From positions 1-64,000 of IMG/VR virus record IMGVR_UViG_3300017754_002544: DNA of 64,000 nucleotides. The stretch is one strand, 5' to 3'. Below, piece after piece: positions 11 to 28,718 of this stretch. The stretch is from a virus. The translations under genes were made by a program, and so were the position numbers. The notes below the pieces were generated by a model. That model was not told the origin of the DNA. It did no database searches and saw nothing but the letters and a program-made list of their open reading frames with translations. Position 1 is the first letter of the stretch, and every line of letters begins with the position of its first letter.

Positions 11-424
11 ATGCCAAAATACTTTACAAAAGACGGAAAAGAATGGAAAGGAGCTACTCACAAGCATTCTTCTGGAAAAGTTATGACTGGAAAGACTCAT
101 ACTAAAACTAGTAAAGAATTATTCAAAGCTAGTGAATTAAAAAATGCTACAAAGAAAAAATTAAAAGTAGGAGGTACTGAGCATGTAGTTCACAAGAATA
201 AAAAAGGAGAAGTAGTAGTACATCATCCAAAAGTTTCTGCTGGAAAGTATGACAAGATAAACCTTACGAAAATGGCTAAAGTAAAGACTGTTGAAGAAGG
301 AGTAAAGGCAACCAAAGAATGGCACAAAGATAATCCACATATGAAATATAATAGTAAAGATTCTAAATCTTCTAATAAAGTGTGTAAAAAATGTGGAAAA
401 AAACGATGTAATTGCAAGAAATAA
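11..424 (+). CDS. Basic Lys/His-rich protein with Cys-rich C-terminus; putative DNA-associated core protein
   Basis: 137 aa, very Lys-rich; internal LKVGG separates two halves; ends CKKCGKKRCNCKK. Confidence 0.6.
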   Translation: MPKYFTKDGKEWKGATHKHSSGKVMTGKTHTKTSKELFKASELKNATKKKLKVGGTEHVVHKNKKGEVVVHHPKVSAGKYDKINLTKMAKVKTVEEGVKATKEWHKDNPHMKYNSKDSKSSNKVCKKCGKKRCNCKK

Positions 425-480: not shown

Positions 481-1074
481 ATGAGAACAAAAAGCGTAAA
501 GGCAACTCCTAAAAAAGCTGTTTCTAAAAAAGTTGTCAAAAAAACGACTAAACCTAAATCTACCAAAAGAGTTATAAAATACGAAGATGGTGGTAAAAAA
601 TCGATACTGAAATCTAAAGGCATAAAAAGACCACTTCGTACAAAAGAGAGAGTTAATGAATCTAATGATGATTATGGAATATATGAAATAGGGTATAAAA
701 CTTCAAGAACTAATCCAATTACAGGTAGAAAAGTTGAAAAATCTAAAACTACTTCTGGTTTTAAAGCTATTGACGATGAAGACGTTAGACAGATGGGCAT
801 GGATTATTTGCCTAAAAAAGAAACAAGAAAAAAAACTATAATAGGTAAAAAAGGTAACGTAAAAGAAAAAGTAAAAATTTTTGAAATAACAACAGTTAAA
901 TCAAAAAACTCTAAACTTAAGCCAAAATATTACGCTAGCAAAAAAACTAAAACTGTAACTAAAAATGGAGAGGGTTTTAAAAAAACAAATGACTATGTTG
1001 GTAGAGATAAAAAAGTAAAACTATCACAAGATTCATTTAGAAATTATTCAGGTAGAGAAAAAGTTAAGATATAA
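481..1074 (+). CDS. Basic Lys-rich protein with histone H1-like N-terminal leader ending in KYEDGG
   Basis: 197 aa; leader PKKAVSKKVVKKTTKPKSTKRV shared with the next gene. Confidence 0.7.
   Translation: MRTKSVKATPKKAVSKKVVKKTTKPKSTKRVIKYEDGGKKSILKSKGIKRPLRTKERVNESNDDYGIYEIGYKTSRTNPITGRKVEKSKTTSGFKAIDDEDVRQMGMDYLPKKETRKKTIIGKKGNVKEKVKIFEITTVKSKNSKLKPKYYASKKTKTVTKNGEGFKKTNDYVGRDKKVKLSQDSFRNYSGREKVKI
506..574 (+). repeat. 69-bp exact direct repeat, copy 1 (copy 2 at 1129-1197)
   Basis: ctcctaaaaaagctgtttctaaaaaagttgtcaaaaaaacgactaaacctaaatctaccaaaagagtta read at both positions. Confidence 0.95.
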
Positions 1075-1103
1075 AAAATTAAGTTAATTAAACTTAAAAT
1101 TAA

Positions 1104-1838
1104 ATGAAAAAGTTAGTCAAAAAAGTAGCTCCTAAAAAAGCTGTTTCTAAAAAAGTTGTCAAAAAAACGACTAAACCTAAATCTACCAAAAGAGTTAGAA
1201 AATATGCTAATGGTGGAGCAAAGACTGGTTGCCCTGATGGATATGTGAGATCGACAAAAGGGGGCTGTATTTCAAAAAAAGATTTAGAGTATGAAGAATA
1301 CTCACCTGTATCAATGGATGCTGAAAAGGAAGTTAAATATATATTAAGTCAGCGAAATAACTGGGCTAATCAAGATTTAGCTAATAAAGTTAACAGATAT
1401 CCAAAAAATGATGAGGAAGATTTTTTTACTACTACACAAGATAGGTTAGGTATGTATATGGGTATACCATATCCTGGAGCAAGTGCTAAAAGCATGAAAG
1501 ACTTTAGAAAAGCGACTTACGATTTTTACCAAGCTAATCCAAATGTAAAACCATACATAGGAAGACTTCCAATTAAAAAGGAGTTGCCAACTTTATCTAA
1601 AGGAGGGACTAAAACCTCAGTTAAAAAATACGCTAAAGGAGGTACTAAAGCTAAATTAGGATCAGGAGAAAGATTTAAAGCACTTTCTACAAAAATAGAA
1701 AAAGCTTATCAAAAGAAAGGTAAGTCAAAAAGTGTTGCTGAAAAAATTGGAAAAGCAACAGCTGCTATTATTGGAATGAAGAAATATGGCAAAGCTAAGA
1801 TGACTAAAATGGCAGTTAAAGGAAGAAAAGGTAAATAA
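1104..1838 (+). CDS. Basic modular protein (shared leader, CPxG Cys module, basic C-terminal domain)
   Basis: 244 aa; motifs KYANGG, LSKGG, KYAKGG; C-terminal LGSGERF...IGMKKYG segment resembles small basic phage proteins. Confidence 0.7.
   Translation: MKKLVKKVAPKKAVSKKVVKKTTKPKSTKRVRKYANGGAKTGCPDGYVRSTKGGCISKKDLEYEEYSPVSMDAEKEVKYILSQRNNWANQDLANKVNRYPKNDEEDFFTTTQDRLGMYMGIPYPGASAKSMKDFRKATYDFYQANPNVKPYIGRLPIKKELPTLSKGGTKTSVKKYAKGGTKAKLGSGERFKALSTKIEKAYQKKGKSKSVAEKIGKATAAIIGMKKYGKAKMTKMAVKGRKGK
1129..1197 (+). repeat. 69-bp exact direct repeat, copy 2
   Basis: Identical to 506-574. Confidence 0.95.
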
Positions 1839-3037: not shown

Positions 3038-3601
3038 ATGAAAAAGATGACCGGAAAAAAAATGCCTAAAACAACTAAAAAATACGCTGCTGGTGGAAAA
3101 GTTTTAGGTCAAGGTAGAGCTACTAGATTAGCTAATAGAGCTAATAAAAAAATGGATAAAGCTGTTTCTACTTGGAAGCAAGCACGAGCTATCCAAAATG
3201 CTGCACCAACATATTCTCCTGATATGAGAGGCAGAAAGTTGGAAATGTATAATCAAGCTGTAGAAGCAGCTAATTCACTTTATGATACTGCAGCAAGCAA
3301 AGAGGCAAGAGCTAAAAAATTAAGAGCAAAATCTGAAAAAGTAGGAGAAAGAGTTATAAGTAGATTAAACAAAAGAATAGATAAAGCAGGAAAAGATCTT
3401 AATAATCCAAAAAAAGCTAGTAAGTCAGTTCAGTCTTTTAAGATGGGAGGTAAAAAATCCTCTTGTAAAAAGTATGAACTTGGTGGAATGGCTTCAATGG
3501 ATTTACTTGGCAAAAAGAAAAAGAAGAAAAGCAGTAAAGGTATGAAAACTGTTTATCCAAACTACAAAAGAAAGATTTGTAAAAATGGAGTTTGTAACTA
3601 A
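3038..3601 (+). CDS. Basic Lys/Ala-rich protein with three GG motifs
   Basis: 187 aa; KKYAAGG, SFKMGG, KKYELGG; poly-Lys run; ends CKNGVCN. Confidence 0.7.
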   Translation: MKKMTGKKMPKTTKKYAAGGKVLGQGRATRLANRANKKMDKAVSTWKQARAIQNAAPTYSPDMRGRKLEMYNQAVEAANSLYDTAASKEARAKKLRAKSEKVGERVISRLNKRIDKAGKDLNNPKKASKSVQSFKMGGKKSSCKKYELGGMASMDLLGKKKKKKSSKGMKTVYPNYKRKICKNGVCN

Positions 3602-9521: not shown

Positions 9522-10226
9522 ATGGTAACTAATTCCGAATTTGTATCAAGAGTTGTTAATGGTTTAAAAGCCTTATCAAAGGACACGCATATTAGTGCTA
9601 GGTATATAGCTCATATTGGAAAAGTAAAATCCAAATTGTATATGAGTCAAAAGCTAGATGATATGTCTTTGTTCAAAGAAGATGGAATTATATCTAGTGT
9701 AAATTGCTTTAAATTAGAAAGAGTAAAAAGTAAGGACTGTGGAATTGTAGAGTTTACACTTTGTGATAATGTAATGAAATCTTGTAAAAAACTACCGGAA
9801 GGGCTTTTCGGTAAGAATGGATCAAGTATAATAAGCGTAATGAGTATTGATGGTGGAAAAATATATAGATATATTACACCAAGAAAATACGTTGATATAA
9901 AGAAGAGAAAATATAGAAGAAAAGATTCTTGGTTTTATTATGTACAAGATGACTTTTTATATTTACCAGATTCAAATAATGAATTAGTTGATCTTACAAT
10001 GATTGTTGTTGATAAAGATGCGATAGAAGAAGTATCTACATGCTCTAATCAAAATAATAAACCATCTTGTAAATCAAAACTAGATTCTGAATTTGTTTGC
10101 CCAGATAGAATCCTAGATTTAGTTGTAGGAGCTACTATACAAGAAGTAGGAACTTTGTATAGGACATCAGTAGCAGACGAAAATCCAAATCTAGATGAAA
10201 ACCAAAAAACAAAAACTGTAAACTAG
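9522..10226 (+). CDS. Putative tail ring/adaptor protein (crAss-like)
   Basis: 234 aa; position directly before the IHF-like, tail tube and stabilisation genes matches crAss-like synteny. Confidence 0.55.
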   Translation: MVTNSEFVSRVVNGLKALSKDTHISARYIAHIGKVKSKLYMSQKLDDMSLFKEDGIISSVNCFKLERVKSKDCGIVEFTLCDNVMKSCKKLPEGLFGKNGSSIISVMSIDGGKIYRYITPRKYVDIKKRKYRRKDSWFYYVQDDFLYLPDSNNELVDLTMIVVDKDAIEEVSTCSNQNNKPSCKSKLDSEFVCPDRILDLVVGATIQEVGTLYRTSVADENPNLDENQKTKTVN

Positions 10227-10694
10227 ATGGCTAAGAAGTTGGCAAAACCATACCTTCTTCTACATCATTCTATATATACTGAGTATCTAAACTATAAAAA
10301 GATGCCAGTAAGTCATAGGATAAAAGGTAGAGAAGAAGTTAGAAATATAGTTAAGACTATATGCAAACACATAGGAAATGAAATAGTTGATAGGAAAGCT
10401 GGAGTACATATAAATGGACTTGGTTATTTTTTTATTTGGAAGATTCCTAAAAAAATGACTTATAATAAAAAAATAAAAGGTGTAGGTTTAGAAGAGAATT
10501 ATAACCATCACACAAATAACTATATGTTTTCTCCAATCCTATTACCATCTTTAGATAAAAATAATACTCTAGCTTATTGGAGTATGGACAACTCTTTTGT
10601 AAACAAGCTTAAGCAAGGAGTTAAAAAGAATGTTATGGCTGGTTTTAAATATAAAATTTACCCATACAGTATTAGAAGACTAAATACTTTATAA
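10227..10694 (+). CDS. IHF/HU-like DNA-binding protein
   Basis: Basic; helix followed by GVHINGLGYF, resembling the HU V-x-I-x-G-F-G-x-F motif; crAss-like synteny. Confidence 0.55.
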   Translation: MAKKLAKPYLLLHHSIYTEYLNYKKMPVSHRIKGREEVRNIVKTICKHIGNEIVDRKAGVHINGLGYFFIWKIPKKMTYNKKIKGVGLEENYNHHTNNYMFSPILLPSLDKNNTLAYWSMDNSFVNKLKQGVKKNVMAGFKYKIYPYSIRRLNTL

Positions 10695-11575
10695 TGAATA
10701 ATATTGATTCTCTAATAGCGGAAGTAAAATCAGACTTTAGCAAATATGCTGACGCTGGACTTCTTGACGAAGATTCTATGTATAGAGATATTCTATTAGG
10801 CCTTAAGAAATTTGGGAATGATATAATGGAATTACATGAAACTGTTGTCGAAGTAAAAGATGGGTATGCAGAATTACCCGAAAACTTCTATAGTCTTTAT
10901 TTAGCAGCTCTATGTAAGCCACTAGGTTATAAAAATAATTGTGATTCAGAAGATGAGTTCCACGATTTACAAGATTCTTATTTTTATACAGAAAGAGTTA
11001 AGTACGATAGAAAATGGTCAGAGTGTGGTTCATGTTGTGATGAATTGTCAGAGAGTGTAATTAGAGAAAATCTATACTTCAAATCTAAAAGAATGGCTGA
11101 GTTCTATTATCATCAGCCAGAACTCTTAAGTTTAGGAAAAACATTCAATAAGAATAATTGTCATAGCAAGTGTAGAAATAAACTTGTACATGATAATCCA
11201 AATCAAATAGTTATTGTAAAATATAGACTTCAGGCTAATTTTAATGAAGGAGACATCTATATGCAATACTATGGACTTCCAATGGATGAAGATGGTAATA
11301 TTGATATTCCAGAATCAAAAAACGGACATTTGGAAGAATATCTAGAATATAGATTAAAAAGAAAAATAGCGGAAAGGTTAATAGGTAATGTTGAAGGACC
11401 TGGAATGGCTCAAATGTACGCAAACTATGGGCAGCAAGAAAGGATAAACCTAAAGAATGCTTCTAATGAATTAAAGATGAGAAGTATCACACCTACCTCA
11501 ATGCAAAGACTAAAGAGAATTAACAGATTAGAGTCGCTTCAATTTGAAAGCGCATTCACTAGAATGTATTCATAA
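10694..11575 (+). CDS. Putative tail tubular protein
   Basis: 293 aa; VEVKDGYAELPENF and YYGLPMDEDGNIDIP motifs; synteny. Confidence 0.6.
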   Translation: MNNIDSLIAEVKSDFSKYADAGLLDEDSMYRDILLGLKKFGNDIMELHETVVEVKDGYAELPENFYSLYLAALCKPLGYKNNCDSEDEFHDLQDSYFYTERVKYDRKWSECGSCCDELSESVIRENLYFKSKRMAEFYYHQPELLSLGKTFNKNNCHSKCRNKLVHDNPNQIVIVKYRLQANFNEGDIYMQYYGLPMDEDGNIDIPESKNGHLEEYLEYRLKRKIAERLIGNVEGPGMAQMYANYGQQERINLKNASNELKMRSITPTSMQRLKRINRLESLQFESAFTRMYS

Positions 11576-14500
11576 TGCCAAAACAAAGAAATTTATCCGG
11601 TGCTAAAATGGGGATGAACAGAGACAAAGCCCCATTTGATTTAGATAATTCTGAGTATTCGTTTGCAATGAATGCAAACTTTCATGATGAGCATGGATCA
11701 GGTCCAGTAAATTTACAGAATGAACCTTCTAATATTTATTGTACAGGCTTTAGACCTGGTTTCAAAGTAATAGGACATAAGTTTGATATAAATAAAGATA
11801 GGACTTATTTCTTTCTAGTTAATACAACAACAAATTGTTCTGAAATAGGATACATAAATAGTTTCTATAACATTGATGGTTTAGAGCAAGTAGAGAGTAA
11901 TTGCAATTGTAATCTTCAAGTTGTTTTAGAAAATCCATTAGAAGAAACAGTACAAGTAGCAACTTGTTCATACATAACTATTTTAAATGATTGTGATTGT
12001 AATGGACAATCAGGTAATCAATGTTTAAATTTTAATATAAACTATCCGATATTTGAATCTAACATTCAATTAAAGGACGAGTTCTCAGGAAGAGTTATAT
12101 ATTTTACAGATGGATTAAATCCACCTAGATATATTCAATTAGATAGGTTAGATATTTATCTACAAGATGAAGATCTATGTACAGGAGAGATAGATCCAGT
12201 ATGTCTTGATTGTGAAAAAATGAGGATTTTCAAATTATATGACAAGCCTTGTTTAACTGTAGATATACTTCAAAATGGTGGAAACTTAAAAGCAGGATTA
12301 TACGAAGCTGCAATAGCTTATTGTACACAAGATGGTATAGAGATATCTCCATACTATTCTATGACAAATCCAATACCAATTTTTGATGATAACAATATTA
12401 TACTAGATCAAACTGATTTAGATTATGTAACAAACCTATCTATAAAATTAACTGCAACTGATTTAGATATAGACTATGAGTATTTTAAAGTTGCTATAGT
12501 TTATAGAAGTGGATTAGACGCATCTACAACTGTAGTTATTAATGGGATTTATCCAATAACAACTGGAAGTATTAGTGTATACAATTTAACTGATAAAACA
12601 GCAATTACACTTCCTGAATTAGTTGTTGGTAAAGTATCTTACGAAACATCTAGAGGACTAGCTTCAGGAAATGGGTACCTATTTCAGTATGGGATGAAAG
12701 CTCATAGAGAGATAAATCTTCAACCAGTTGTTAACTTATTAGGATCTTTAGTAAAGTGGAGCACAGTTGCAGCTCAAGAGGACATATATAAAAATGGAGC
12801 TTTAGTATCTAATTTTACTGGATACATGAGAGACGAAGTATACCCATTAGCTATAAAATTTTTCCTTGATGGTGGATATGAGACTCCAAACTTTGTATTT
12901 ATACCAAGACCTCCACTTGATTTTGAAATAGAAGAATTAGGTATAGATTATGCAGAAGATGACAACAATCAATCAGTTTTAGAGCATAATCCTGATTGTT
13001 CAGGAAACGATAGAAATAAAAGATGGCAATTTGAAAATACAGCTCAAGTAATAGACAGATGTGAAGTACCTGAAAATCCAGCATATGGTGAGCAGGTAAA
13101 TATAGTTACTGAAACAAATATTTGTTATTATGATATTGAAGTCACAGTAGCAGGACCAGAAACTTTGGTTATACCAAATGGGCAAAACTTAGTAACTTAT
13201 ATAAACAATAATCAAGCTGAGATAATCGCATCATCAGATCCTGATTGGGCAACTATAGCTGGAATTATCGATGATCCAACTGATTATCCAGGAGATTGTG
13301 TGCCTTCATTTGGAGATACTTGTACAGTCAATCCAATACCAATTTCTGAGGAAATAGTTGCAGTATCAGTAGGTACTGAGTCATCTTCCGAAACAGCTTT
13401 AACAGGGTTTACAGATTATGTTAGAGTTAATCCTCCAGGATTAGCTTCAGTAATTGATATAGATGGATCACCAGCTTTAGAAGATACAACTTTCATAACT
13501 AATTATATGAGGCCATGGGAAGTTGTTTATTATAGAGCTAACTATGGAAATACAAGTTGTTCTACTTTTGACCCTATTATTCAATATATTAATCCACCAA
13601 CAACTGTTAATAATCCAGTATGGCTTGATTACGCAGGTTCTTTAGGAACTAATGCATCACTACTTACACCAATAACAGTATCTGCTGTTGACGTTCCAAA
13701 TGGGTTTACATCTAATCTACATGTAAATGCAAGGTGGTATAAAATAGATTTTCCTAGTGGTCTTGATACTCAAATAATTGAATTGTCTACAAATGCAGTA
13801 GCAACAACAGATGATATTTGCCAAGATAAATTAAGAGTTACATTTTATGATGGTTGTCCAACAACTTCAGATGTTGCTGCATATGCCATAATAATATCTG
13901 ATATTACATTAGCAAATGATCCAGATAAATTTATAGTATTAAATTCTGCTGATTTTCCATCAGGAAGTGCATATATAGCTTTAGATACACCTATTAAAGT
14001 AGATGTAATGTGGTCTTTAGTGTTTACAGGTACTTCAGGAAGCGTAGATATAGAAATTGATGGAATTACATATACACAAGCTTATACTGGAAGTTTACCA
14101 GGAACTGCATCAGATTTCTTATCAAATCATACAACTCCGACAATAATAGATTCTATATCTTATAATATATTAAATGGAAGTAATAACATATATGCTGTAG
14201 TCATTGGACCTTCTGTCATATTTAGAAGTACTGAGGAAGAGTTTAATTCATTAGTTGTAACAAGTATATCTTGGGACTTAGGGGCAGCTGCACTTCCTAT
14301 GCAATATTATCATGTTTTAACTACGATTTGTGGATGTGTAAACTTATTTAGTAGAGAACTAGATACCTTTATAGAAACTACTTTTACAGATTTAGTATTT
14401 TATAAAAAGCAAACATACGAAGCAGATTGTGAATATACAATACCAGTATTAGGAGATTGTGACCCTGTCCCTTACGAATATGGACTTTTTAGTTATTGGG

Positions 14501-17500
14501 AATCAGTTGAAAAATATCCATGTAATGATGAGTTATATGATTCATCAAGCTCAATATGTGTAGAGTTATCAGATTTACAAACATACTTAAGTTCAGCAGA
14601 AATAGACGAATTCTTAGATTATTATATTGAAGGTGGAAGTGCGGCTCCAGTAATAGATGCAGTTATAGGAAGCCCTTGTTTTGGAAAACTAAAATGGAAA
14701 GAAGATTTAAGTGGTAAACCATTTGTAGATTTTAGAGATAGAGAAATAAGACATTATAAATTTCCTTGTTCTATTACATCTCCTTTTATGAGTACAACCT
14801 CTCAAAATCCAGGAGATTTTAATGAAAGTGTAATATATCCAATTGGATTTACAATATCAGAAGAGGCAATAAAAACATTCTTAGATTTAGCTGTAACAAA
14901 TGGATTATTAACACTCGAAGAAAGGCTAAAAATTAATAAATACGAAATATTTAGAGGAGATAGAAGTGTTGATAAATCAATTATATCAAAAGGTTTATTA
15001 TTTGATACATATCAATATGCAGATGGAAATAAAGAGACTGGATTTTTAGACCCAGCTCAAATAGTACTTTATCCAAATTATCCATTAAATGCACTTGGGG
15101 AAGATGTATATAATAGAGTACTTCATCCCTACGATAGTACAAAAAATCATTCATTTACGTACCATTCTCCAGACATCCATTACTATAAACCATTTTTACC
15201 TAGAGAATTAAAAATAGAAGGTTATCAATTTGGAAAGTCTCAAACTACATTTGATATAGTAAGAGACCATTCTACATATGTAGTTCTTGGAAAATTAGCA
15301 TTTAATCTTGCTACAATTCTAGCTATAATAGAAGTTTCTTTAGATATAGCATTACAAGCAGGACAATTGATTTTAGATGCAGGAGGTTCAAATATAACAG
15401 TACTTCCAGCAAATGTAATTATAGCAATTACCCTAGGAGCTTTGTTATTATCTTCTTTCTATAGAGTTCAAGAAGTAAGATATAAGTGGATTGAAACTTT
15501 TTATAATTTAGGGCATTTACATCAATTTGCTTATTATAGTGCCACAATTGGATATTATAATAATTTTTTACCAAATCCACTTTCAAATGAGGTATTGAGA
15601 GCAATGCCAACTATAAAATATTTAAAAGATGGTAGATACTCAATACCTAATGAAGATATTAGTGTTGGTGGAAGTTTCCTATTTAATAATTTTCAAAGAG
15701 AAGATTCAGTATTTTTAAATGTATCTGAATTTCCTATTAATTACCCTTCTATATACTATAATTACGATACAAATAATGATATAGATAATTGTAGTAGAAG
15801 ATTTTATGATGGAGTTGGTAAAAGTGGATTATTAAAAGGAAACGCTGCATCACCTTATGTTTCTTTAAAACAATATTTACCATCTCAGTATGGTAATATA
15901 CAATCTATAGATTGGGTACATACAAATTTTTGTGGAGACTTAAATCAATCATTTGACTGTAATCCTATTTTTGGTGGGGATGTATCTATATCAAGATTTT
16001 CAGTAAAAAGGAAAATACCATTCTTTACTACTAATTCACATGGTTTAGCACCAAGAACTCCTTTTCAATATTCAGAAAATTTCAATATAAATCCTGCAAA
16101 TATTACTAGTAGATATTATATCGATTATTTAATAAATGATGAAGAGACTTTTTTTGGAATAACATTTCCAACTAGTAATAAAAGTGAGTTCTATTTATAT
16201 CCATCAGGAGCATCTGGAGCCTTTGATTTTTATATAAGGCCACCAGAAAAATTCTTTTTATTTTCATATGGATTTCCATACTTTTTAGCAGAAAGCACAA
16301 TAAATAGTAATTTTAGATATGCTAAAAGAGAGAAGTTCCAAGACTTTTATCCAAACACTCCTGATGTAATAGAGTTTACACAAGAAAGTAATGTTAGTAT
16401 TAGAGAGCTAAACTACTACTATTATAACTTTGTATATTCGGCACTTCATACGCCATATAGAAGAAGAATGCTACCTGACAATTATGATAGTGTTCTATAT
16501 GCCGGAACTGAGGATCAAAGTAATACAGTAATATACTCTCTACAAGATAGCTCTGAAACTTCATTGACTGATCCATGGATAGTATATAATGGACTTGATG
16601 CTTACACTTTTCCAAAAACATTTGGTAAGCTAATCACTATGGATAGTATTGAATCTGAGCAAATATTAGCTAGGTTCGAGAATGGATTTACAATGTTCGG
16701 AGCTGTAGATCAAATAGCAGACAGATTCACTTCAGATACAGCTAATTTAGGTCAAGGTGGAATATTTGCAGGAAGGTCAGTAAACTTTAATAAAACTGAT
16801 TTAGGATATGCCGGAACACAACACTCAGCTAAAGTTAGTTGTGAGTTTGGACATTTTTGGGTAGATGCTAAAAGAGGTCAAGTATTACAAGTTGAACCAG
16901 GAGGCACATCTTTTGCTGAAGTAACAGCTGGATTGGAAAAATGGTTTAAAGAAAATCTACCATTCAAGATAACCCAATATGTACCAAATATACCTCAGAA
17001 AGACTTAGATAATAATTTCAAAGGTTTAGGTATAACGATGGGATGGGATTCTAGACTTAGAAGAATATTCTTGACAAAACTAGACTATAAAGTATTAGTT
17101 GATGGTGTACAGTATATAGATGGAGAATTTTATTTAAGAGAAGGAGAAAAACTAAGTAAAGTAGATTTAACAGATAGAACAATATTTGAAGATTGTTCAT
17201 TTACTGTAGCTTATAGTCCATTAACTAAAAGCTGGATTTCATACTATTCCTTTAAACCAAACTACTATATTGGCTATAATAACTATTTTCAAACAGGTGT
17301 AAACTATTCAGTAGATGCAACTGAAGAAGGACTTTGGTCACACTTTCCATTTTTAAGTTCTTATCAAGTTTTCTACGGAACTTTACATCCATTTACAATT
17401 GAAAGTATAGCCCCTACAAAAGGATACAATTCAGTATTACATAGTATTGAGTATTGGTTAGATACAAGAAAATACTATAATAAATATGATTTTGCTGATA

Positions 17501-17901
17501 TATTTGGATATGGTTTCAATAAAGCGTATATTTACAATAGTAATCAAAATACTGGAAGATTAAATTTAGTACATCAAAAGAATAATGATTTAAGTCAATC
17601 ACTTCAATATCCAATACACAATGTAAATTCTACAGATATTTTACAATCAGAGATAAATGGTAAGTGGACTTTTAATTATCTTTACAATTTAGTTAAAAGC
17701 GAAAGAAGTGGATTACCAATTTGGAGATATGACTGTAGCCAAATTGATAAGACGATTGATGATAGATTACTAGATTATAGAAGCAATTATAAAGATAGAA
17801 TACGAGGTGAGTATTTCTTAATAAGATTGGAGCAAGATGCCGAGAGTAGATATAAGATGATATATAGATTCCAATCAGATATGAGAAACTATTACGAATA
17901 A
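11575..17901 (+). CDS. Tail stabilisation/muzzle-like protein
   Basis: 2108 aa; GMNRD N-terminus, IYFTDGLNPPRYI, GYMRDEVY, FWVDAKRG, WISYYSFKP, IRGEYF motifs typical of crAss-like tail stabilisation proteins. Confidence 0.7.
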   Translation: MPKQRNLSGAKMGMNRDKAPFDLDNSEYSFAMNANFHDEHGSGPVNLQNEPSNIYCTGFRPGFKVIGHKFDINKDRTYFFLVNTTTNCSEIGYINSFYNIDGLEQVESNCNCNLQVVLENPLEETVQVATCSYITILNDCDCNGQSGNQCLNFNINYPIFESNIQLKDEFSGRVIYFTDGLNPPRYIQLDRLDIYLQDEDLCTGEIDPVCLDCEKMRIFKLYDKPCLTVDILQNGGNLKAGLYEAAIAYCTQDGIEISPYYSMTNPIPIFDDNNIILDQTDLDYVTNLSIKLTATDLDIDYEYFKVAIVYRSGLDASTTVVINGIYPITTGSISVYNLTDKTAITLPELVVGKVSYETSRGLASGNGYLFQYGMKAHREINLQPVVNLLGSLVKWSTVAAQEDIYKNGALVSNFTGYMRDEVYPLAIKFFLDGGYETPNFVFIPRPPLDFEIEELGIDYAEDDNNQSVLEHNPDCSGNDRNKRWQFENTAQVIDRCEVPENPAYGEQVNIVTETNICYYDIEVTVAGPETLVIPNGQNLVTYINNNQAEIIASSDPDWATIAGIIDDPTDYPGDCVPSFGDTCTVNPIPISEEIVAVSVGTESSSETALTGFTDYVRVNPPGLASVIDIDGSPALEDTTFITNYMRPWEVVYYRANYGNTSCSTFDPIIQYINPPTTVNNPVWLDYAGSLGTNASLLTPITVSAVDVPNGFTSNLHVNARWYKIDFPSGLDTQIIELSTNAVATTDDICQDKLRVTFYDGCPTTSDVAAYAIIISDITLANDPDKFIVLNSADFPSGSAYIALDTPIKVDVMWSLVFTGTSGSVDIEIDGITYTQAYTGSLPGTASDFLSNHTTPTIIDSISYNILNGSNNIYAVVIGPSVIFRSTEEEFNSLVVTSISWDLGAAALPMQYYHVLTTICGCVNLFSRELDTFIETTFTDLVFYKKQTYEADCEYTIPVLGDCDPVPYEYGLFSYWESVEKYPCNDELYDSSSSICVELSDLQTYLSSAEIDEFLDYYIEGGSAAPVIDAVIGSPCFGKLKWKEDLSGKPFVDFRDREIRHYKFPCSITSPFMSTTSQNPGDFNESVIYPIGFTISEEAIKTFLDLAVTNGLLTLEERLKINKYEIFRGDRSVDKSIISKGLLFDTYQYADGNKETGFLDPAQIVLYPNYPLNALGEDVYNRVLHPYDSTKNHSFTYHSPDIHYYKPFLPRELKIEGYQFGKSQTTFDIVRDHSTYVVLGKLAFNLATILAIIEVSLDIALQAGQLILDAGGSNITVLPANVIIAITLGALLLSSFYRVQEVRYKWIETFYNLGHLHQFAYYSATIGYYNNFLPNPLSNEVLRAMPTIKYLKDGRYSIPNEDISVGGSFLFNNFQREDSVFLNVSEFPINYPSIYYNYDTNNDIDNCSRRFYDGVGKSGLLKGNAASPYVSLKQYLPSQYGNIQSIDWVHTNFCGDLNQSFDCNPIFGGDVSISRFSVKRKIPFFTTNSHGLAPRTPFQYSENFNINPANITSRYYIDYLINDEETFFGITFPTSNKSEFYLYPSGASGAFDFYIRPPEKFFLFSYGFPYFLAESTINSNFRYAKREKFQDFYPNTPDVIEFTQESNVSIRELNYYYYNFVYSALHTPYRRRMLPDNYDSVLYAGTEDQSNTVIYSLQDSSETSLTDPWIVYNGLDAYTFPKTFGKLITMDSIESEQILARFENGFTMFGAVDQIADRFTSDTANLGQGGIFAGRSVNFNKTDLGYAGTQHSAKVSCEFGHFWVDAKRGQVLQVEPGGTSFAEVTAGLEKWFKENLPFKITQYVPNIPQKDLDNNFKGLGITMGWDSRLRRIFLTKLDYKVLVDGVQYIDGEFYLREGEKLSKVDLTDRTIFEDCSFTVAYSPLTKSWISYYSFKPNYYIGYNNYFQTGVNYSVDATEEGLWSHFPFLSSYQVFYGTLHPFTIESIAPTKGYNSVLHSIEYWLDTRKYYNKYDFADIFGYGFNKAYIYNSNQNTGRLNLVHQKNNDLSQSLQYPIHNVNSTDILQSEINGKWTFNYLYNLVKSERSGLPIWRYDCSQIDKTIDDRLLDYRSNYKDRIRGEYFLIRLEQDAESRYKMIYRFQSDMRNYYE

Positions 17902-17907
17902 TAAAGT

Positions 17908-19095
17908 ATGGCTACAGAAACATCTAAATCTAGAGCAAAAGACGCTCAGAATGTAGATCCTAATGAGGTTCTTCAATACCTATTATCTAAAAATGTATCT
18001 ATAAATCATGCTGTAGGTATGGTTACAAATATGTATTATGAATCACTTTTTGACCCATTAGCAATGGGAGATAAAGGAACTTCAGCCGGACTATTTCAAC
18101 ACCATGCAGATAGAAAAGCAAAATTAATGAAAGCAACAAATGGGGATTTATCCAATTGGAAAGCTCAGGTTGATTATGCTTTATCAGAAAGTGCTAGTAA
18201 AAAGTATTTATCAAGAAGTTTTAAAACGCCTGAAGAGGCATCTTATTGGTTTACTTACAATTGGGAGAACCCATCTAATAGAGCTGAGAAAGCAGTTCAA
18301 AGACAATCTTGGATAAAATCTTTTAATGGAGGGCAGTACTTTACAGGAATATACAATCCTAATAATTTAAATGTTGAATTAAAAGCTGTAGCACCTTCAA
18401 AGTCTAGTGGCAAAAAGGCTACATATACAAATCTTGAAGGCACAGCTACAGAAGAAGCAACTATTCCAGAACCTCAACCATATATACCTTCAGCCTATAT
18501 TCCACCAGAAATGATGAGTGGAGTTGATTATGGTCCACAAGAATTCGTAGCTGAAGTTGAGAAAGAGCAAGATAAACAAGTTGAGAAAGAAACTAAAAGT
18601 CAAGAATCTCAAGCAAGAGCCGAGTTAGATGCAAAAACTCAAGAGGCACAACAGAAAGAGAATGAAATGGCATTTTTAAAAACAATACAAAATGCAGTTG
18701 ATGTAAGTGCTTTAAATCAAAATCAAAATACTTCACAAGAAGACCAAAATAGAATGGCCAATATGGCAGCAGGATATCAATTCGAAGAAATGCCAATTCA
18801 GCAATCTTTACCTCAATTACCTACAATATACCAATTTGAAGAAGGAGGAGAAAAGTCAGAGGAAGATGAAGAAGAAGTTGAAGAATCTGAAAATGAAGAT
18901 GAAAACAATGAAGAATCTGAGGACGAAGATAGCAACGAAGAAAATATGGAAGAGGGTGAAGAAAGTGAAGATGATGAGGAAGAAGATAAAGGAGAGGATA
19001 AAGATGAAGATGAAGATGAGGTAGAATATTTAACTCCTGAAGAAATCGAAGAATTAATTAAAAAAGGCTACAAAATCGAGTACGTTAAAGAATGA
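17908..19095 (+). CDS. Virion-associated lysozyme (phage tail lysozyme type) with long acidic tail
   Basis: AVGMVTNMYYES...GDKGTSAGLFQH...AQVDYAL...WENP; ~57-aa D/E tract after FEEGG. Confidence 0.75.
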   Translation: MATETSKSRAKDAQNVDPNEVLQYLLSKNVSINHAVGMVTNMYYESLFDPLAMGDKGTSAGLFQHHADRKAKLMKATNGDLSNWKAQVDYALSESASKKYLSRSFKTPEEASYWFTYNWENPSNRAEKAVQRQSWIKSFNGGQYFTGIYNPNNLNVELKAVAPSKSSGKKATYTNLEGTATEEATIPEPQPYIPSAYIPPEMMSGVDYGPQEFVAEVEKEQDKQVEKETKSQESQARAELDAKTQEAQQKENEMAFLKTIQNAVDVSALNQNQNTSQEDQNRMANMAAGYQFEEMPIQQSLPQLPTIYQFEEGGEKSEEDEEEVEESENEDENNEESEDEDSNEENMEEGEESEDDEEEDKGEDKDEDEDEVEYLTPEEIEELIKKGYKIEYVKE

Positions 19096-22000
19096 AAAAG
19101 TCTAGTAGAAAAACAAAAAGAAAAGGAACAGTAGCCGTAAAAGTTATAGCTCCTAAGAAATTTGCAACTGGTGGAGCTGTCTCTTTTGATTTTGATGATA
19201 CGCTAAGTACAGATTTAGGATTACAAATGGCTAAAAGTAATCCAAGTTCAAATAAGTATGTAATATCAGCTAGATCAGAGGTAACTCCAGATATGATTGC
19301 TAGAGCTCGTCAAGCAGGGATACCTGATAGTAACATATTTGCAACTGGTTCTGATGAAGCTAAAGTAGCTAAGATACAAGAACTTGGTATCAAAAAACAC
19401 TTAGATAATAAAAAGTCAGTAATTGATAGATTAGGTTTTAAAGGTCAATTATTTGAAAATGGTGGAAATAAAAAAGGAAATCCACCGTACAAATCGCCTG
19501 TTCAAATAGTTCCATACTATAGTTTTAATCAACCAACTACTCCAGAAGAATGGGTTAAATCTATAGATCAAATAGAAAAAATAATAGGTAATCCATCTAC
19601 ATGGACACAAGATGACTATAATATATATCAAAATAAGTTAAACGAATATAAGATATGGAGAGAAACAACTCCTGAAGGACAGGCAGTTGTTGATTCTAGT
19701 AAAAGACCAAATGAATACGTAATTCCATTACCAACTCAATTAAGTACTTATTTAACATCCGAACAAAATAGGATACTACAAGAAAATCCAGAGCTTCAAT
19801 TTATACCTAAATCTAAATTTGCATTTGGAATGCCAGGAGCATATGGAGTTACAGATGAAGTAGGTTATGCATATGGTGGGTACTCAGGACTATTTAGATA
19901 CGCTGATGGAGGAACCGAAGGAGAGCCTATAGAAAATCCACCTATATATACATGGGAAGGAGATCCAAATAGCTATTACAGAAAAGACGAAAAAGGAAAT
20001 TGGAGATACTTAAATAAGGATACACAATCAGAATTTGCAAGTGGTCTATATGCTTTTGATAAGGTAAGAAATCGTAAAGTCAAAAAGAAACTTGATGCAG
20101 AAGCTGTATTAAATCCAAATGCGGAAGCAGTATTAAATCAATGGGGTAATACACTTACAACACCAGAGATTTCTGAAGTAACATTAGGTAGAAAAGAGAC
20201 TCGTAAAGAAAGGAAAGAAAGAGAAGCTAGGTATCAAGCTATGACTCCGGAAGAAAGACGCATATTTGACCAAAGAAAAGAGCAAATGAAGGAGGAAATG
20301 TGGAGAAGAGATAATCCTAATCTTTTAGCAAATAACTTCTTTAATGATCCTTCAAATATGACCTCTGAGCAATTGCGTCAAATGGCCTATAAAGTTCCTT
20401 TTGCTGAAGCACAGAAATGGTTGGATATGGCAGAAGTTCAAGCGAGAAGAGAAGGAGAGCTAAGAACAAATAAACGAGAAAAGGATTATTTTCAAATGGG
20501 CATGAGTACAATGCATGGTGGTGATTATCTTGCTCCTGGAGAAACTTATGCTAGTACATATAATAAACTAAACAACTTTAAAACTTCTGAAGAATTACCT
20601 TATGCATATGCTGGAACAGATAAGTCTGGCAATATACAGTTAATGACTCAAGAACAAAAAGCTAAGAATGATGCTCAACTAGCTCAGATTACAGCTGTCA
20701 ATGAAGCATTAAAAAATAGAGCTCTTATTGAACAAATAGAAGGACGAAAGTTAACTGATTCAGACATATATGGAGAAGATGGTAACTACAATCCTAATTT
20801 AGCAAAATATAGTACTCAAGAATATTTAGGAAAAATAGATGACCAAAAATATCAAAACTTTTTAGCAGAAAATCAAAAAGCAGCAGATGAAGCAGGCATA
20901 CTATATAATAGTATGGACTTTTTAAGAAATCTAGCAGTAAACTTTCCAAGTACTACAATCAATCTTCTTGAAGGTAAGATGCCTTTATTTCAACAAGGTT
21001 TAGGTCTTAGATCCGAAGATCCTGAATTACGAGCTATGTATGAAGGATATATGCCAGCAGGAGGAACAGATACTGATTATTGGTTTAATTTTATAAATCC
21101 AGTGGCATCTCTACAAGAGGCTAAAATAAGCTATGATTTAGGAAATTATGGTAATGCTGCATTAGCAGGATTAGGTGCATTACCTCTTATAGGCGCAGTA
21201 GGAAAAGGTACTGCCAAAGGTATTGGAATTTTAGATGATGCCTATAGAGCAGCTATGTCTAAGTCTGATGAATTTGCTAGGTCATTTAATTTAGCAGATG
21301 AAGCACCAGAAAGTAGTTATACATTTACTCAAAGTACTGATGATTTAGCTAATTTAGCAGATGAAGCAACAACAAGTGTTGGGGCTAGAAATAATCCTAC
21401 TAATTTTTATGATGAATACTTATTTAATGAAAATGTAAATTTAGAGAGAATTCCAGAAGAAGATTTGATGACTGCTTTTTCAGAAAATCCAAATGCTACA
21501 ATAGTAGAAGCTATATCTCCTACTTTACCAGGAAATTATACTAATTTAAATGAATTATTAATAGCTCAAGACAAAGCCTTTAGTGAAGGTGTCGACATTT
21601 CTAATAGATGGGCTTTAGCAGATAGTGAAAAATATTTTAGTACTATAGATGAAGCTAGTAAAATGATGGAAGAGATACCTAAAATACAAGATCAAAAAGC
21701 TGCAATAATTAATCAGAGAGAATTAGTTGTTCAAAAGTCAATCGAAGATTTTATGCAAAGTAAGGGATTGCTTGAAAAATACAAAGAGAATCCCTTTAGA
21801 ACAGATATACCCCATTCATTTTTTATTGAGTTCCATGATGACTTGATGAAAAATCCTGATTATGTGAAATTAACTGATGAAATTAATTCATATGACGAAG
21901 CTATAAAACAAATAGAAGTAAGTGCTAATCAAAAAATAGTAGATGCAGAACAATATGTAGATCCAATATTTAAAGAAAAAGTACAAAATCTATATAATCT

Positions 22001-22868
22001 TGCCGGACAAAATGCACCTGAATTAGCAAATATTCAAAAGGATATTCCAATATTTCTACAACTAAATGAATCAGATCCATTATTTTCAACATTATCAAAA
22101 GAAGCTCAAGACTACATTAGAAAAAATAGAGGTGAAATTTATGGTACATCTGGGTTACCAAAAGGCGAAACAGTAACATTAGGATCTATAGCAGGAGATG
22201 AATTAACCTATTTATCAACTCCAAAAGACTCTTCAATAAATACAGAAATAGTGAGATCTGTAGAACAAAAATTTTTACTTCCAGAAGATGTTAGAGCAAC
22301 TGCGGTACATGAAGGGGGTCATGCCATTTCTCAAAAAGCATATAATAATTGGGTTAAATTAGTTGCAGAATATGACCCTATGTATTTATATTATGTAAAT
22401 CATAGTAGAAACGACATTGCAAAAGAGTTTAAAAGATGGATGGTTGACCCAACCCTTCCTGTTGATGGTAAATATACAACTCAAACTTGGAAAAGTGGTA
22501 TTGGAGAGTTACATTCTGAATTAATGGCAGCAAGAGCTGAAGTTGTATCTAATTATGTAAAAAAGAATGGTATGTCTATCGATGAAGCTGTAGAACTAGT
22601 TAAAAAACAAGAAGCAGAAGGCGACCCATTCTTATTTGAATACTACCTAAATGAATCTCCTGCTGAGTTAAGAAAACATTTTAAACCAGATACTCCTGAC
22701 CAAATAAAAAAACAATTGATTCAAATACTTCCAGCTGGTATTGTAATTGCAGGAACAGCATCAGGTATATCTATGGCAGGAAGTGGAGATGGCTCAACAA
22801 CCAATACTCAAGGATATAAATTAGGAGGAAGTCATAAAAATAAATACATTGGTTTATTTAGACAATAA
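19092..22868 (+). CDS. Multidomain putative internal virion protein (HAD module, hydrophobic segment, zincin HExxH domain)
   Basis: 1258 aa; SFDFDDTL HAD motif I; AALAGLGALPLIG hydrophobic helix; HEGGH at 22308-22322; five GG motifs. Confidence 0.65.
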   Translation: MKKSSRKTKRKGTVAVKVIAPKKFATGGAVSFDFDDTLSTDLGLQMAKSNPSSNKYVISARSEVTPDMIARARQAGIPDSNIFATGSDEAKVAKIQELGIKKHLDNKKSVIDRLGFKGQLFENGGNKKGNPPYKSPVQIVPYYSFNQPTTPEEWVKSIDQIEKIIGNPSTWTQDDYNIYQNKLNEYKIWRETTPEGQAVVDSSKRPNEYVIPLPTQLSTYLTSEQNRILQENPELQFIPKSKFAFGMPGAYGVTDEVGYAYGGYSGLFRYADGGTEGEPIENPPIYTWEGDPNSYYRKDEKGNWRYLNKDTQSEFASGLYAFDKVRNRKVKKKLDAEAVLNPNAEAVLNQWGNTLTTPEISEVTLGRKETRKERKEREARYQAMTPEERRIFDQRKEQMKEEMWRRDNPNLLANNFFNDPSNMTSEQLRQMAYKVPFAEAQKWLDMAEVQARREGELRTNKREKDYFQMGMSTMHGGDYLAPGETYASTYNKLNNFKTSEELPYAYAGTDKSGNIQLMTQEQKAKNDAQLAQITAVNEALKNRALIEQIEGRKLTDSDIYGEDGNYNPNLAKYSTQEYLGKIDDQKYQNFLAENQKAADEAGILYNSMDFLRNLAVNFPSTTINLLEGKMPLFQQGLGLRSEDPELRAMYEGYMPAGGTDTDYWFNFINPVASLQEAKISYDLGNYGNAALAGLGALPLIGAVGKGTAKGIGILDDAYRAAMSKSDEFARSFNLADEAPESSYTFTQSTDDLANLADEATTSVGARNNPTNFYDEYLFNENVNLERIPEEDLMTAFSENPNATIVEAISPTLPGNYTNLNELLIAQDKAFSEGVDISNRWALADSEKYFSTIDEASKMMEEIPKIQDQKAAIINQRELVVQKSIEDFMQSKGLLEKYKENPFRTDIPHSFFIEFHDDLMKNPDYVKLTDEINSYDEAIKQIEVSANQKIVDAEQYVDPIFKEKVQNLYNLAGQNAPELANIQKDIPIFLQLNESDPLFSTLSKEAQDYIRKNRGEIYGTSGLPKGETVTLGSIAGDELTYLSTPKDSSINTEIVRSVEQKFLLPEDVRATAVHEGGHAISQKAYNNWVKLVAEYDPMYLYYVNHSRNDIAKEFKRWMVDPTLPVDGKYTTQTWKSGIGELHSELMAARAEVVSNYVKKNGMSIDEAVELVKKQEAEGDPFLFEYYLNESPAELRKHFKPDTPDQIKKQLIQILPAGIVIAGTASGISMAGSGDGSTTNTQGYKLGGSHKNKYIGLFRQ

Positions 22869-22944
22869 GTAATAAGAAAATCAATCTATTTTATAAATAT
22901 ATAATATTTTTATAATTTTATAAATTCAGTAATACACAATCAAT

Positions 22945-28300: not shown

Positions 28301-28652
28301 TTATCAAGCTAATGTCACAAACGCTCAGAACTTAGCAAATACCGAGTTGTTTAATATTGGACAAAGAGATAGACAAAGTGAAGCAGATATAAGAAACAAA
28401 CTAAGTTTTGAACAAAGGCAATATACAGCATTAGCTAATACCCAAGAGGAATTCAAGAGGTACTTTGATAGACTTAATGATATCAGATTGAATGAATACT
28501 CAATAAATCAAAACTTAAATATGCTAAATCAAATTTATCCTGATTATAGTCTAGATAGTACTGGTATGTCGATAGAGTATACTCCAGAAGAGATAAATAA
28601 GATAAGAGAATTGAATCAATACTCTCAATTATTTGGTAATCCATATATATGA
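25377..28652 (+). CDS. Putative internal virion protein
   Basis: 1091 aa; N-terminal AELEGDE...GEPHSKGGV...IISNKL domain; seven GG motifs within 25977-26693; poly-Pro; Gln-rich coiled-coil C-terminus. Confidence 0.6.
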   Translation: MKKFDTKKIKIKSKKEPSMEEKLTGSVISELKTDKVEPNAELEGDEIVQFPDGLIQTVKGEPHSKGGVKMNIPDGTRIISNKLTLSKKDVTRLKDKYDLNTSTNDTYAKAFDKFLKKSGITRLNEEQKGYFETLKKQLESESIPSATFRLNQEHLSKKISEIEMQKQIKEDVKKEVFNDIFQMQEVSKSPDKKAKSESGEYKYGGTYRKFAMGGFQPMNGMPYGNYSGLYSKGVSPNIPMMPSTPPPPPPPPPMSQKGKDMFKAEKGGTKNEFSISEIKVVPKPRTRYADGGPKNPCPEGMTYDPVYGCAPVDTIIYPPGDSEYMNQPRLNYDIIEMLNQKYRRDAEEYIRDMNDPTNIQRATPAEQQKFYMNQGLVSAQNGGTINMSGATYAKGGEKKSGYGNLTQSQFQSLCKKYGMTEEQGKVLLLSKTKQYAIGGVADSGDPYVVVNPDGTHVLRTSEGDMPLGKGDYKINPDGTVDVFKQVGASRMITTPYYYQNPQSDTEDLLTPEDYVKGDYASAAALGKASPTNINLVQKEDGSFEAIKPETSETRTIPNKDVVVNNDGTATVKVDGNNVTTEYQVVNKETGELESPVVQVAESIDKTPKGMTKQEYLALKKELDSPIKIAKAYSEGKIDAQTANKLQFILDNSTGALFTTSTAGKSVYSKSELYPATYQKVNEAAHGNITKEDLPLVMEYLYKNFPDIVSSEDIFGGKFDESGKFTYNESLDFTKASEQVGKFQERANDRMKATARVILDNAHLFDTKDVEEARRFLSDETFNEGLPARKFDKLLGNFTSGRYNLGVNVVSKDELQKLNALNIYTIKDLNKAIEENPELISDASKARLYELSDIMSDDSDFLLNPTVEPEVPEEEQVVEQKPISEDVTLPKPFIPTRYFTPDVAPLPPTAMMPHFMGQSQFGLAEPVRIGIEQQVQATNDIMRDVSRQVQDLPPQQRALVMSQMQAERGKQLNDAAYQANVTNAQNLANTELFNIGQRDRQSEADIRNKLSFEQRQYTALANTQEEFKRYFDRLNDIRLNEYSINQNLNMLNQIYPDYSLDSTGMSIEYTPEEINKIRELNQYSQLFGNPYI

Positions 28653-28718
28653 TAATGTCTGATTATTTTTGCATATTAAATTAAATATTACTAATTTTAC
28701 ATTTTAAAATTTTAAGTT

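Follow-up and report, generated by a model that had tools for sequence, protein, structure and literature searches.

Why would two adjacent phage genes open with the same basic sequence and then encode proteins that share nothing further? We addressed this question in a window of 64,000 nucleotides, i.e. positions 1 to 64,000 of the IMG/VR virus record IMGVR_UViG_3300017754_002544, where the open reading frames (ORFs) ORF481 (positions 481-1074, 197 amino acids (aa)) and ORF1104 (1104-1838, 244 aa) follow one another on the plus strand. This window covers the first 64 kb of one contig of 124,113 bp (32% G+C), and its source is a crAss-like podovirus from freshwater metagenomes. The two genes share an exact repeat of 69 nucleotides (nt), with 506-574 identical to 1129-1197 and neither end extendable by one base; a repeat search also returned a looser pair, 472-593 and 1095-1216 (122 nt, 84% identity). 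Both copies are in frame. Each comprises codons 10-31 of its gene plus flanking bases, and the 22 whole codons encode PKKAVSKKVVKKTTKPKSTKRV in both proteins. One differing residue (I/R) follows, then K-Y-(ED/AN)-G-G in both, with the two glycines at aa 37-38 of each protein, and there the similarity ends. We call these first 38 residues the leader, the aromatic-x-x-Gly-Gly motif that closes it the tag, and what comes after it the payload.

The ORF481 leader (481-594, aa 1-38) contains 37% lysine plus arginine (K+R) and ends in K-Y-E-D-G-G (577-594). That of ORF1104 (1104-1217, aa 1-38) contains 42% K+R, is predicted to be disordered and ends in K-Y-A-N-G-G (1200-1217). The ORF481 payload (595-1074, aa 39-197; pI of the whole protein 10.3) matches no family, and Pfam gave no match for either protein. 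A BLASTP comparison of the whole of ORF481 with the whole of ORF1104 aligned the leader end only (E 0.51) and left the payloads unmatched (next best E 5.3). An earlier reading of this DNA, made without database searches (hereafter the sequence-only reading), had described an exact 69-bp repeat in two adjacent genes and a similarity that runs through the Gly-Gly and stops there, and had proposed a constant leader in front of variable payloads. All of this is borne out, the repeat base by base and in independent sequencing runs. The same reading had considered that the downstream parts might be homologous; we examined this, and by BLASTP they are unrelated.

The repeat is not an artefact of assembly, because independent public runs carry both copies with their own flanks. 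Contigs of run X2 include pieces 1-574, 545-749 and 1168-1573, which carry the window sequence with 0 other letters, and contigs of run X3 include pieces that begin at 545 and at 1168. One piece of run X5 (547-1161) bridges the copies, from the end of the first into the second. Chance cannot produce a 69-nt exact match in a 124-kb genome.

The explanation that we favour, with a probability of roughly 0.45 for the whole of it, is that leader plus tag form a loading label, that the leaders are kept alike by gene conversion and that, as we lean to think, the tag is then cut. Leader plus tag would mark otherwise unrelated modules, like an address, for entry into the particle alongside the cargo set, much as the capsid-targeting sequence (CTS) does in phage T4. 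A cut after Gly-Gly, made by a host enzyme or by a phage protease that we did not recognise, would free the polycationic leader and separate the modules, for example the 64-residue C-terminal module of ORF1104. The DNA packed in the particle would retain the basic leaders and tails, and gene conversion would keep the two leaders alike. Judged from the sequences, the label-plus-payload design is both real and general. Its function as a loading label is plausible but unproven.

The evidence for conversion comes from the codons. Given the peptide, identical codons at 22 of 22 positions have a probability of about 10^-7.2 under the codon usage of the genome. Among the shared residues just outside the block, four of six use different synonymous codons (K7, Y34, G38 and K40), versus 0 of 22 inside it. 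Together these counts point to a freshly homogenised patch in an older paralogous leader pair, and the 69-bp identity is best read as a recent gene-conversion tract inside an older duplication. The sequence-only reading had spoken of a recent duplication of the leader. The recency holds for the exchange, as the 22 identical codons indicate. It does not hold for the duplication, given the synonymous differences outside the block and the occurrence of both payload types with this leader in several relatives. Two of these relatives (P0006 and P0173) are natural chimeras, with an ORF481-type start on an ORF1104-type payload.

Exact nucleotide identity could also mean that the repeat acts at the level of DNA or RNA, as a regulatory or recombination element that is coding by accident. 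Signatures of unequal exchange nearby in relatives would fit such an element. Strains differ in leader length through joints from 1154 to 1119 or 1107 (runs X2, X4 and X5), and one contig of run X4 joins 453 to 1101. We give this alternative hardly any credence: in both genes the block is read in frame to give an identical peptide, RNA folding of the repeat revealed no structure (z-score -0.09, with 88 of 200 shuffles folding at least as well), and the X4 joint is a single contig with a 37-nt side. That joint skips 647 bases, which would take out all of ORF481, and is a weak hint that some relatives may lack or replace ORF481. We also observed a segment resembling the window around 1550 that is joined to the start of the leader repeat (1133 in X2, 510 in X5) via the same 29 inserted letters, which suggests that a relative has a further leader-bearing gene directly after an ORF1104-like segment. 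Among viral and metagenome contigs, queries with ORF1104 and ORF481 brought up distant loci only, related to ours through the C-terminal module, exact-pattern scans for the leader DNA in viral and genome contigs gave no match, and phages in GenBank gave none to the DNA of the locus, to ORF1104 or to an 811-aa protein encoded further downstream.

The two leaders belong to a much wider pattern. We counted tags over 159 ORFs (38,720 aa) and compared the counts with 300 shuffles. The form YA.GG, which closes the ORF1104 leader, occurs 11 times (shuffle mean 0.41, maximum 4) and is thus about 27-fold enriched in the genome; [YF]A.GG occurs 14 times (mean 0.63, maximum 4) and the loosest form, [YF]..GG, 33 times (mean 13.8, maximum 24). 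The sites of this last form are concentrated, with 23 of the 33 in 13 genes (5,613 aa) and 10 elsewhere (33,107 aa; odds ratio 13.6, p 1e-12). The 13 genes are eight small basic ORFs (pI 10.1-10.8, 25-36% K+R), which lie on the structural strand between head and tail genes, and five ORFs from 17908 to 31607 after the muzzle gene. Written in full, the tag has the form [KR]-[YF]-x-x-G-G and stands at N-terminal leaders, internal joints and C-terminal tails. A basic leader (35-42% K+R) that ends in a tag opens four ORFs: ORF481, ORF1104, ORF3038 and ORF19092. The architecture is therefore wider than the sequence-only reading saw, as these four ORFs, many homologs of the cargo proteins and the cargo protein gp45 of phage crAss001 all open with a basic leader plus tag.

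The other tagged proteins, all on the plus strand, differ in where their tags lie. ORF3038, a third small basic ORF (3038-3601, 187 aa, pI 10.5), has its basic leader followed by KKYAAGG at aa 14-20, and further on FKMGG (aa 134) and KKYELGG (aa 144-150) before a basic tail that contains Cys. ORF19092 (19092-22868) encodes a 1258-aa post-muzzle protein that starts with a basic leader plus KKFATGG (aa 1-28) and has four further [YF]..GG sites, one of them 17 aa from the C-terminus. The 811-aa post-muzzle protein (22945-25380) contains two copies of a unit of about 35 aa that has GG at either boundary and closes with KYAEGG (aa 372 and 728). Both sites are kept in 4 of 4 homologs, and in two of these the second reads KYEDGG, as in ORF481. 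The 1091-aa post-muzzle protein (25377-28652, PHROG 36695) has a conserved N-domain (aa 1-208) and C-domain (about 625-1091), and its five tags (aa 201-439) are found where the N-domain ends or in the variable stretch between the two domains.

Tags sit at module joints. We modelled ORF1104 with AlphaFold2 (AF2) from a 23-row alignment (mean predicted confidence, pLDDT, 68.6). The model predicts disorder at aa 1-39 (leader and tag), a fold at aa 40-157 (a Cys-Pro hairpin plus helices, pLDDT 73-91), disorder again at aa 158-182, a stretch that ends in KKYAKGG, and a helical module at aa 183-244. On the DNA, the middle domain occupies 1218-1622 (aa 39-173), the second tag 1623-1643 (aa 174-180, at the end of the predicted disordered linker) and the C-terminal helical module 1644-1838 (aa 181-244). 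Hence each of the two tags closes a predicted disordered segment, and a folded module follows at once. Distant phages encode the C-terminal module by itself, as a protein of 54-61 aa whose start aligns right after KKYAKGG. On one contig (L010) this stand-alone module is found among separate small basic genes that adjoin genes for a tail sheath and a T4 gp19-like tube. Directly before it lies a gene for a 64-aa protein (L010 9811-10005), which matches aa 49-108 of the 137-aa small basic ORF at the start of our window (11-424, plus strand, pI 10.1) with 53% identity (E 5e-15). Freshwater phages of very different kinds thus have small basic modules in common, which are fused in ours and separate in the contractile-tailed one.

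Variation among relatives stops at the same places. In P0007 and P0009 the leader, the middle domain and the tag are kept, and only a short basic tail follows the tag. Runs X4 and X5 carry a divergent version in place of the middle domain. Their similarity to the window breaks off at 1216, in the last codon of the leader Gly-Gly, and resumes at 1623-1626, at the start of KKYAKGG. Gaps in contig coverage (for example in X4 and X5 at 1261-1540) were counted as replacement only when accompanied by a joint or a loose end. A further link leads to the large proteins. ORF1104 aa 11-55 (leader end, tag and Cys-Pro hairpin) align with aa 270-309 of the 1091-aa protein (P0171; pairwise E 3e-4), which indicates that the N-terminus of the small gene is arranged like an internal joint of a giant post-muzzle protein. 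The sequence-only reading had also seen in the leader a way to recruit new payloads into the virion. That part of its argument fits with this match and with the module that stands free elsewhere after the second tag.

The tag is conserved far beyond this genome. Among cluster representatives, 709 are homologs of the 1091-aa protein at E up to 0.001, and the best 150 of these 709 contain [YF]..GG 394 times, versus 46.7 expected (maximum 63 in 100 shuffles). At least one tag occurs in 143 of the 150 and at least two in 117, and tag number grows with protein length (Spearman 0.59). A tag lies within 60 aa of the N-terminus in 37 of the 150, frequently preceded by a short basic stretch, and within 60 aa of the C-terminus in three. 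The Gly-Gly at aa 204-205 of the 1091-aa protein is invariant in a 40-sequence alignment, and the aromatic and basic tag positions are conserved in its homologs. One homolog (P0024) carries a phage lysozyme domain between tags. In Cellulophaga phage phi4:1, gp040 has four [YF]Q.GG sites.

In kind, cargo protein C1 (gp45) of crAss001 with its leader and tags comes closest, though this is not a case of shared membership. This protein has a basic N-terminal stretch followed by FDTGG, the order seen in ORF481, ORF1104, ORF3038 and ORF19092. It also has two more strict tags at about aa 260 and 559, and a basic tail containing GG at its C-terminus. The phage is of the same type and the gene neighbourhood after the muzzle gene is the same. 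In contrast to gp45, ORF481 and ORF1104 are small and encoded between head and tail genes, not after the muzzle gene. The portal-binding domain PF25725 (crAss_CARG1) has no match in ORF481 or ORF1104, and none at E up to 10 in four giant post-muzzle proteins, whereas its score for gp45 is 222 bits. For the N-domain of the 1091-aa protein, comparison with gp45 by hhalign gave a probability of 0.8%, Foldseek against solved structures gave no match at E 0.001 or better, VIA-align gave generic helical hairpins (best Z 8.3 over 50-63 residues), and a PDB sequence search gave only chance-level ubiquitin rows (E 0.02-1). The gp46 protein of crAss001 has no tag. The cryo-EM-resolved segments of gp45, as reported by Bayfield et al. 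2023 (PMC10172136), are 214-245 and 425-552. Both internal tags lie just after these segments and are therefore not themselves ordered.

We found no paper that links crassviruses with an aromatic-x-x-GG motif or with a head protease among the titles and abstract beginnings searched, and the tag is not mentioned in the accessible text of PMC10172136. It appears undescribed.

Known systems offer several points of comparison. Phage T4 brings unrelated proteins into its head by a short N-terminal leader that they have in common, the CTS, which the prohead protease gp21 removes at a consensus site (hydrophobic-x-Glu), and its internal payloads include small basic proteins associated with DNA. Our locus resembles this in that one N-terminal leader, ending at a consensus site, is shared by unrelated payloads. 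It differs in that the leader is 38 residues long, rich in lysine and closed by [KR][YF]xxGG, which is not a gp21-type site, in that no S77 protease was found in the complete genome, and in that the tag is also internal and near C-termini. The likeness to the CTS suggested by the sequence-only reading therefore stands as an analogy, for the shared leader and unrelated payloads, and fails as membership, for the missing S77 protease and the different leader end. We consider the CTS the closest, and a fair, working analogy.

A second comparison is with adenovirus, whose core precursors (among them pVII and pX/mu) are cut inside the capsid by adenain at (M/I/L)XGG-X. There too very basic proteins carry Gly-Gly sites, and cutting here would likewise release short polycationic peptides. 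Unlike in the substrates of adenain, the fourth residue before the presumed cut is A, E or K and the aromatic residue is one position further back; no C5 peptidase was found; and adenovirus is a virus of eukaryotes whereas ours is a phage system in which cutting is hypothetical. In a broader version of the loading label, the tag would be the punctuation of a crassvirus-wide polyprotein and loading code, cut by a protease outside the known head-protease families or by one of the Bacteroidota host. Any module placed behind a basic leader plus tag would be carried into the particle. Cutting would free enzymes, channel formers and small DNA-binding proteins, and the leader peptides would help to condense the genome, like adenovirus mu. 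As conversion keeps the leaders interchangeable, new payloads could under such a code be recruited by simple recombination. This broader version is possible, and in our view clearly short of probable.

Several results weigh against the loading-label explanation, and we gather them here with the alternatives on which they bear. The first concerns the range of payloads. In a search of proteins of 134-427 aa, all 8 non-self matches of this leader (8/8) lay on ORF481- or ORF1104-type payloads. Hence the expectation that relatives would carry the same leader on different payloads stands for two payload families and does not extend to further ones. An exact leader on two payloads only, together with lysine-rich sequence that is common in all eight small ORFs, would also be seen if a tandem duplication had simply acquired a recently converted patch, with no function common to the two genes and with a leader that is no more than a low-complexity basic N-terminus. 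We regard this as very unlikely. The payloads have no similarity, the leader ends in the enriched tag, and it remains about 95-100% identical over the aligned part in relatives whose overall identity has fallen to 52-64% via a diverged middle domain. A second result concerns exchange between the two genes. In P0005 and P0016, whose longest contig is 11,969 bp in both, both leaders carry KKAT in place of KKTT (T to A), and in P0014 and P0180, with a longest contig of 14,117 bp in both, the 22-residue core is the same as in this genome. Such covariation of the leaders is only suggestive of exchange, since relatives are polymorphic for the T/A change (P0174 and P0175 have it too) and since the origin from the same contig is deduced from equal longest contigs alone. 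A third concerns phi4:1. There the tag is confined to gp040 and is not enriched among the 19 structural proteins examined ([YF]..GG 5 versus 6.4 expected), and small basic leader proteins are missing at the equivalent place.

A fourth group of results concerns cutting. Pfam scans of the ORFs revealed no maturation protease, only a Peptidase_C92 protein beside the holin, and six-frame searches of the complete genome returned 0 matches each for the C39 peptidase (PF03412), the S77 prohead protease (PF03420) and the C5 peptidase (PF00770). The 1091-aa protein contains the best-conserved tag, YKYGG (aa 201-205), and the structure prediction places it in the ordered N-domain (pLDDT about 91) and not in a floppy stretch. 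In the crAss001 atlas (PMC10172136), gp45 is modelled as a single continuous chain extending from the tail to the capsid, and the word 'protease' occurs 0 times in the accessible text of that article. All these observations would be expected if the same tag were never cut and served as a hinge or docking handle at joints, with the leader as a permanent DNA-binding or anchor tail, and the conserved aromatic and basic positions of the tag would suit a recognition handle. A docking handle predicts something other than the crAss001 tags, which are unresolved just outside the ordered bound segments. In addition, both ORF1104 tags lie in segments predicted to be disordered, and the module after the second tag is a separate gene elsewhere. 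We hold the uncut tag to be a serious possibility that nevertheless falls well below even odds.

For cutting itself we count four observations: basic peptides hang via tags on both protein ends, tags end floppy segments before folded modules, the post-tag module is a separate gene elsewhere, and the gp45 tags are not ordered. On balance we lean, by little over even odds, to a tag that is cut after Gly-Gly. The text of the 2018 crAss001 paper (PMC6235969) reports 13 bands with a 'moderate discrepancy', and gives no assignments. As for the enzyme, the Peptidase_C92 protein is unlikely to be a maturation protease: it lies beside the holin, and crAss001 and phi4:1 have tags and no such gene annotated in the genome parts compared. 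It is more likely a lysis enzyme. We also noticed a 144-aa ORF just before the window start (genome 123561-123995), which has an HExxH motif and belongs to no Pfam or PHROG family; from its motif, it is a candidate metalloprotease.

The last of the results that weigh against the loading label concerns location. The small basic genes are interleaved with those for the holin, the Peptidase_C92 protein and an Amidase_2 endolysin, and a role outside the virion is therefore possible. Under this alternative the leader would be a double-glycine-type or polycationic signal for leaving the cytoplasm or attacking the envelope, possibly through a host C39 transporter, and would have no relation to the virion. 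The leader does end in GG, and a Bacteroidota genome used as the control of the C39 search encodes C39. We consider the alternative unlikely. The searches of the complete genome and the Pfam scans found neither C39 nor an ABC transporter in the phage. Giant post-muzzle proteins contain the same tag, both internally and at their C-terminal ends, and the homologs of these proteins in phi4:1 are annotated as virion or structural proteins from tandem mass spectrometry (MS/MS). Double-glycine leaders of bacteriocins and quorum peptides are cut by C39 peptidase-ABC transporters, and they are short and amphipathic with conserved hydrophobic positions before the GG. Ours has Gly-Gly directly before a variable cargo, as they do. 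It lacks their hydrophobic pattern, contains 37-42% K+R, is predicted to be disordered and has K-Y-A/E-x before the GG, with an aromatic residue five positions before the presumed cut. Its payloads are of 159-206 aa, and its tag recurs inside proteins of 800-1250 aa and at C-terminal ends. The bacteriocin-like nature that the sequence-only reading had entertained thus comes down to the terminal GG.

For ORF481 and ORF1104, the place of their genes and the company of their tag make a role as virion cargo plausible but unproven. The own model of the ORF481 payload in the ESM Atlas, which is of low confidence (mean pLDDT 0.56), resembles a beta-meander or partial outer-membrane beta-barrel (TM by query 0.51-0.72), and the payload could, on this model, be a membrane-active sheet. 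The ESM Atlas gave no usable likeness for the middle domain of ORF1104. Two further small basic ORFs match Pfam families: genome 122096-122434 is DUF5872 (E 1.2e-14) and 122446-122736 is DUF5754 (E 2e-11). The neighbouring DUF5754 ORF, one of the eight small basic ones, also matches part of phrog_220, annotated as 'minor head protein and DNA pilot'.

In gut and water, crassviruses rank with the most abundant phages, and they are known to carry megadaltons of cargo proteins. To our knowledge, how this cargo is selected, loaded and released is not understood. A tag found on leaders, joints and tails, and conserved over hundreds of homologs, offers a testable handle on the loading of crassvirus cargo. 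The locus is a clear natural example of label-plus-payload logic, with a converted leader on two unrelated payloads, a fused module, and swaps that stop at tags. To the wider pattern of tags the locus adds the exact 69-bp leader duplication with evidence of conversion, the mosaic breakpoints at tags at the level of DNA, and the fused module that stands alone in contractile-tailed phages. Under the broader loading code, if it holds, the leader could serve to load foreign proteins into crassvirus particles.

The assignment of the phage to the crAss-like type relies on several markers on the plus strand of the window at 9522-17901. The ORF at 9522-10226 matches Pfam CrAss_Ring_2 (tail ring protein 2, E 1.6e-19), that at 10694-11575 matches CrAss_Ring_1 (tail ring protein 1, 28.7 bits for a cut-off of 27), and that at 11575-17901 encodes a muzzle-like protein of 2108 aa, with a match to PHROG 37948 of 1149 bits. 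Aligned over 80% of its length, the muzzle-like protein is 39.7% identical to a structural protein of Cellulophaga phages phi4:1 and phi17:2. Downstream of the muzzle gene come a series of giant ORFs and then the replication module. The head genes (terminase, portal, capsid-like and scaffold-like) are at 104-121 kb, which, read across the contig ends, puts them just upstream of the window start. Direct terminal repeats are present in the record, and its completeness rating is 100%. Near-identical sequence is present in at least 24 freshwater or lake metagenome runs from 22 studies, among the matches listed.

Other parts of the genome gave some minor observations. A 226-aa ORF beyond the window, on the minus strand (genome 64913-65593), matches Pfam ATE_C (E 9.7e-8), the C-terminal domain of arginine-tRNA-protein transferase, and thus resembles an aminoacyl-tRNA-protein transferase. 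In the cargo family (the 150 homologs of the 1091-aa protein), Glu is the commonest residue after the GG of the tag (71 of 394). If tags were cut, a Glu exposed after the GG would be the type of substrate for an ATE_C-like enzyme, which is pure speculation. A giant ORF of 2357 aa in the window (36660-43733) has weak likenesses, below Pfam cut-offs, to a GNAT acetyltransferase (aa 716-775) and to an ART-PolyVal ADP-ribosyltransferase (aa 823-880). The ORF for a family A DNA polymerase (975 aa, 54258-57185) has a weak LAGLIDADG-like match at aa 634-695, which may, going by this match, be an intein or a homing-endonuclease insert. The phage also encodes GroES- and GroEL-like chaperonins (Cpn10, Cpn60) and a full RecA (E 1.5e-109) at genome 96537-98371 and 102340-103326, and two C5 cytosine methylases at genome 79333-81087.

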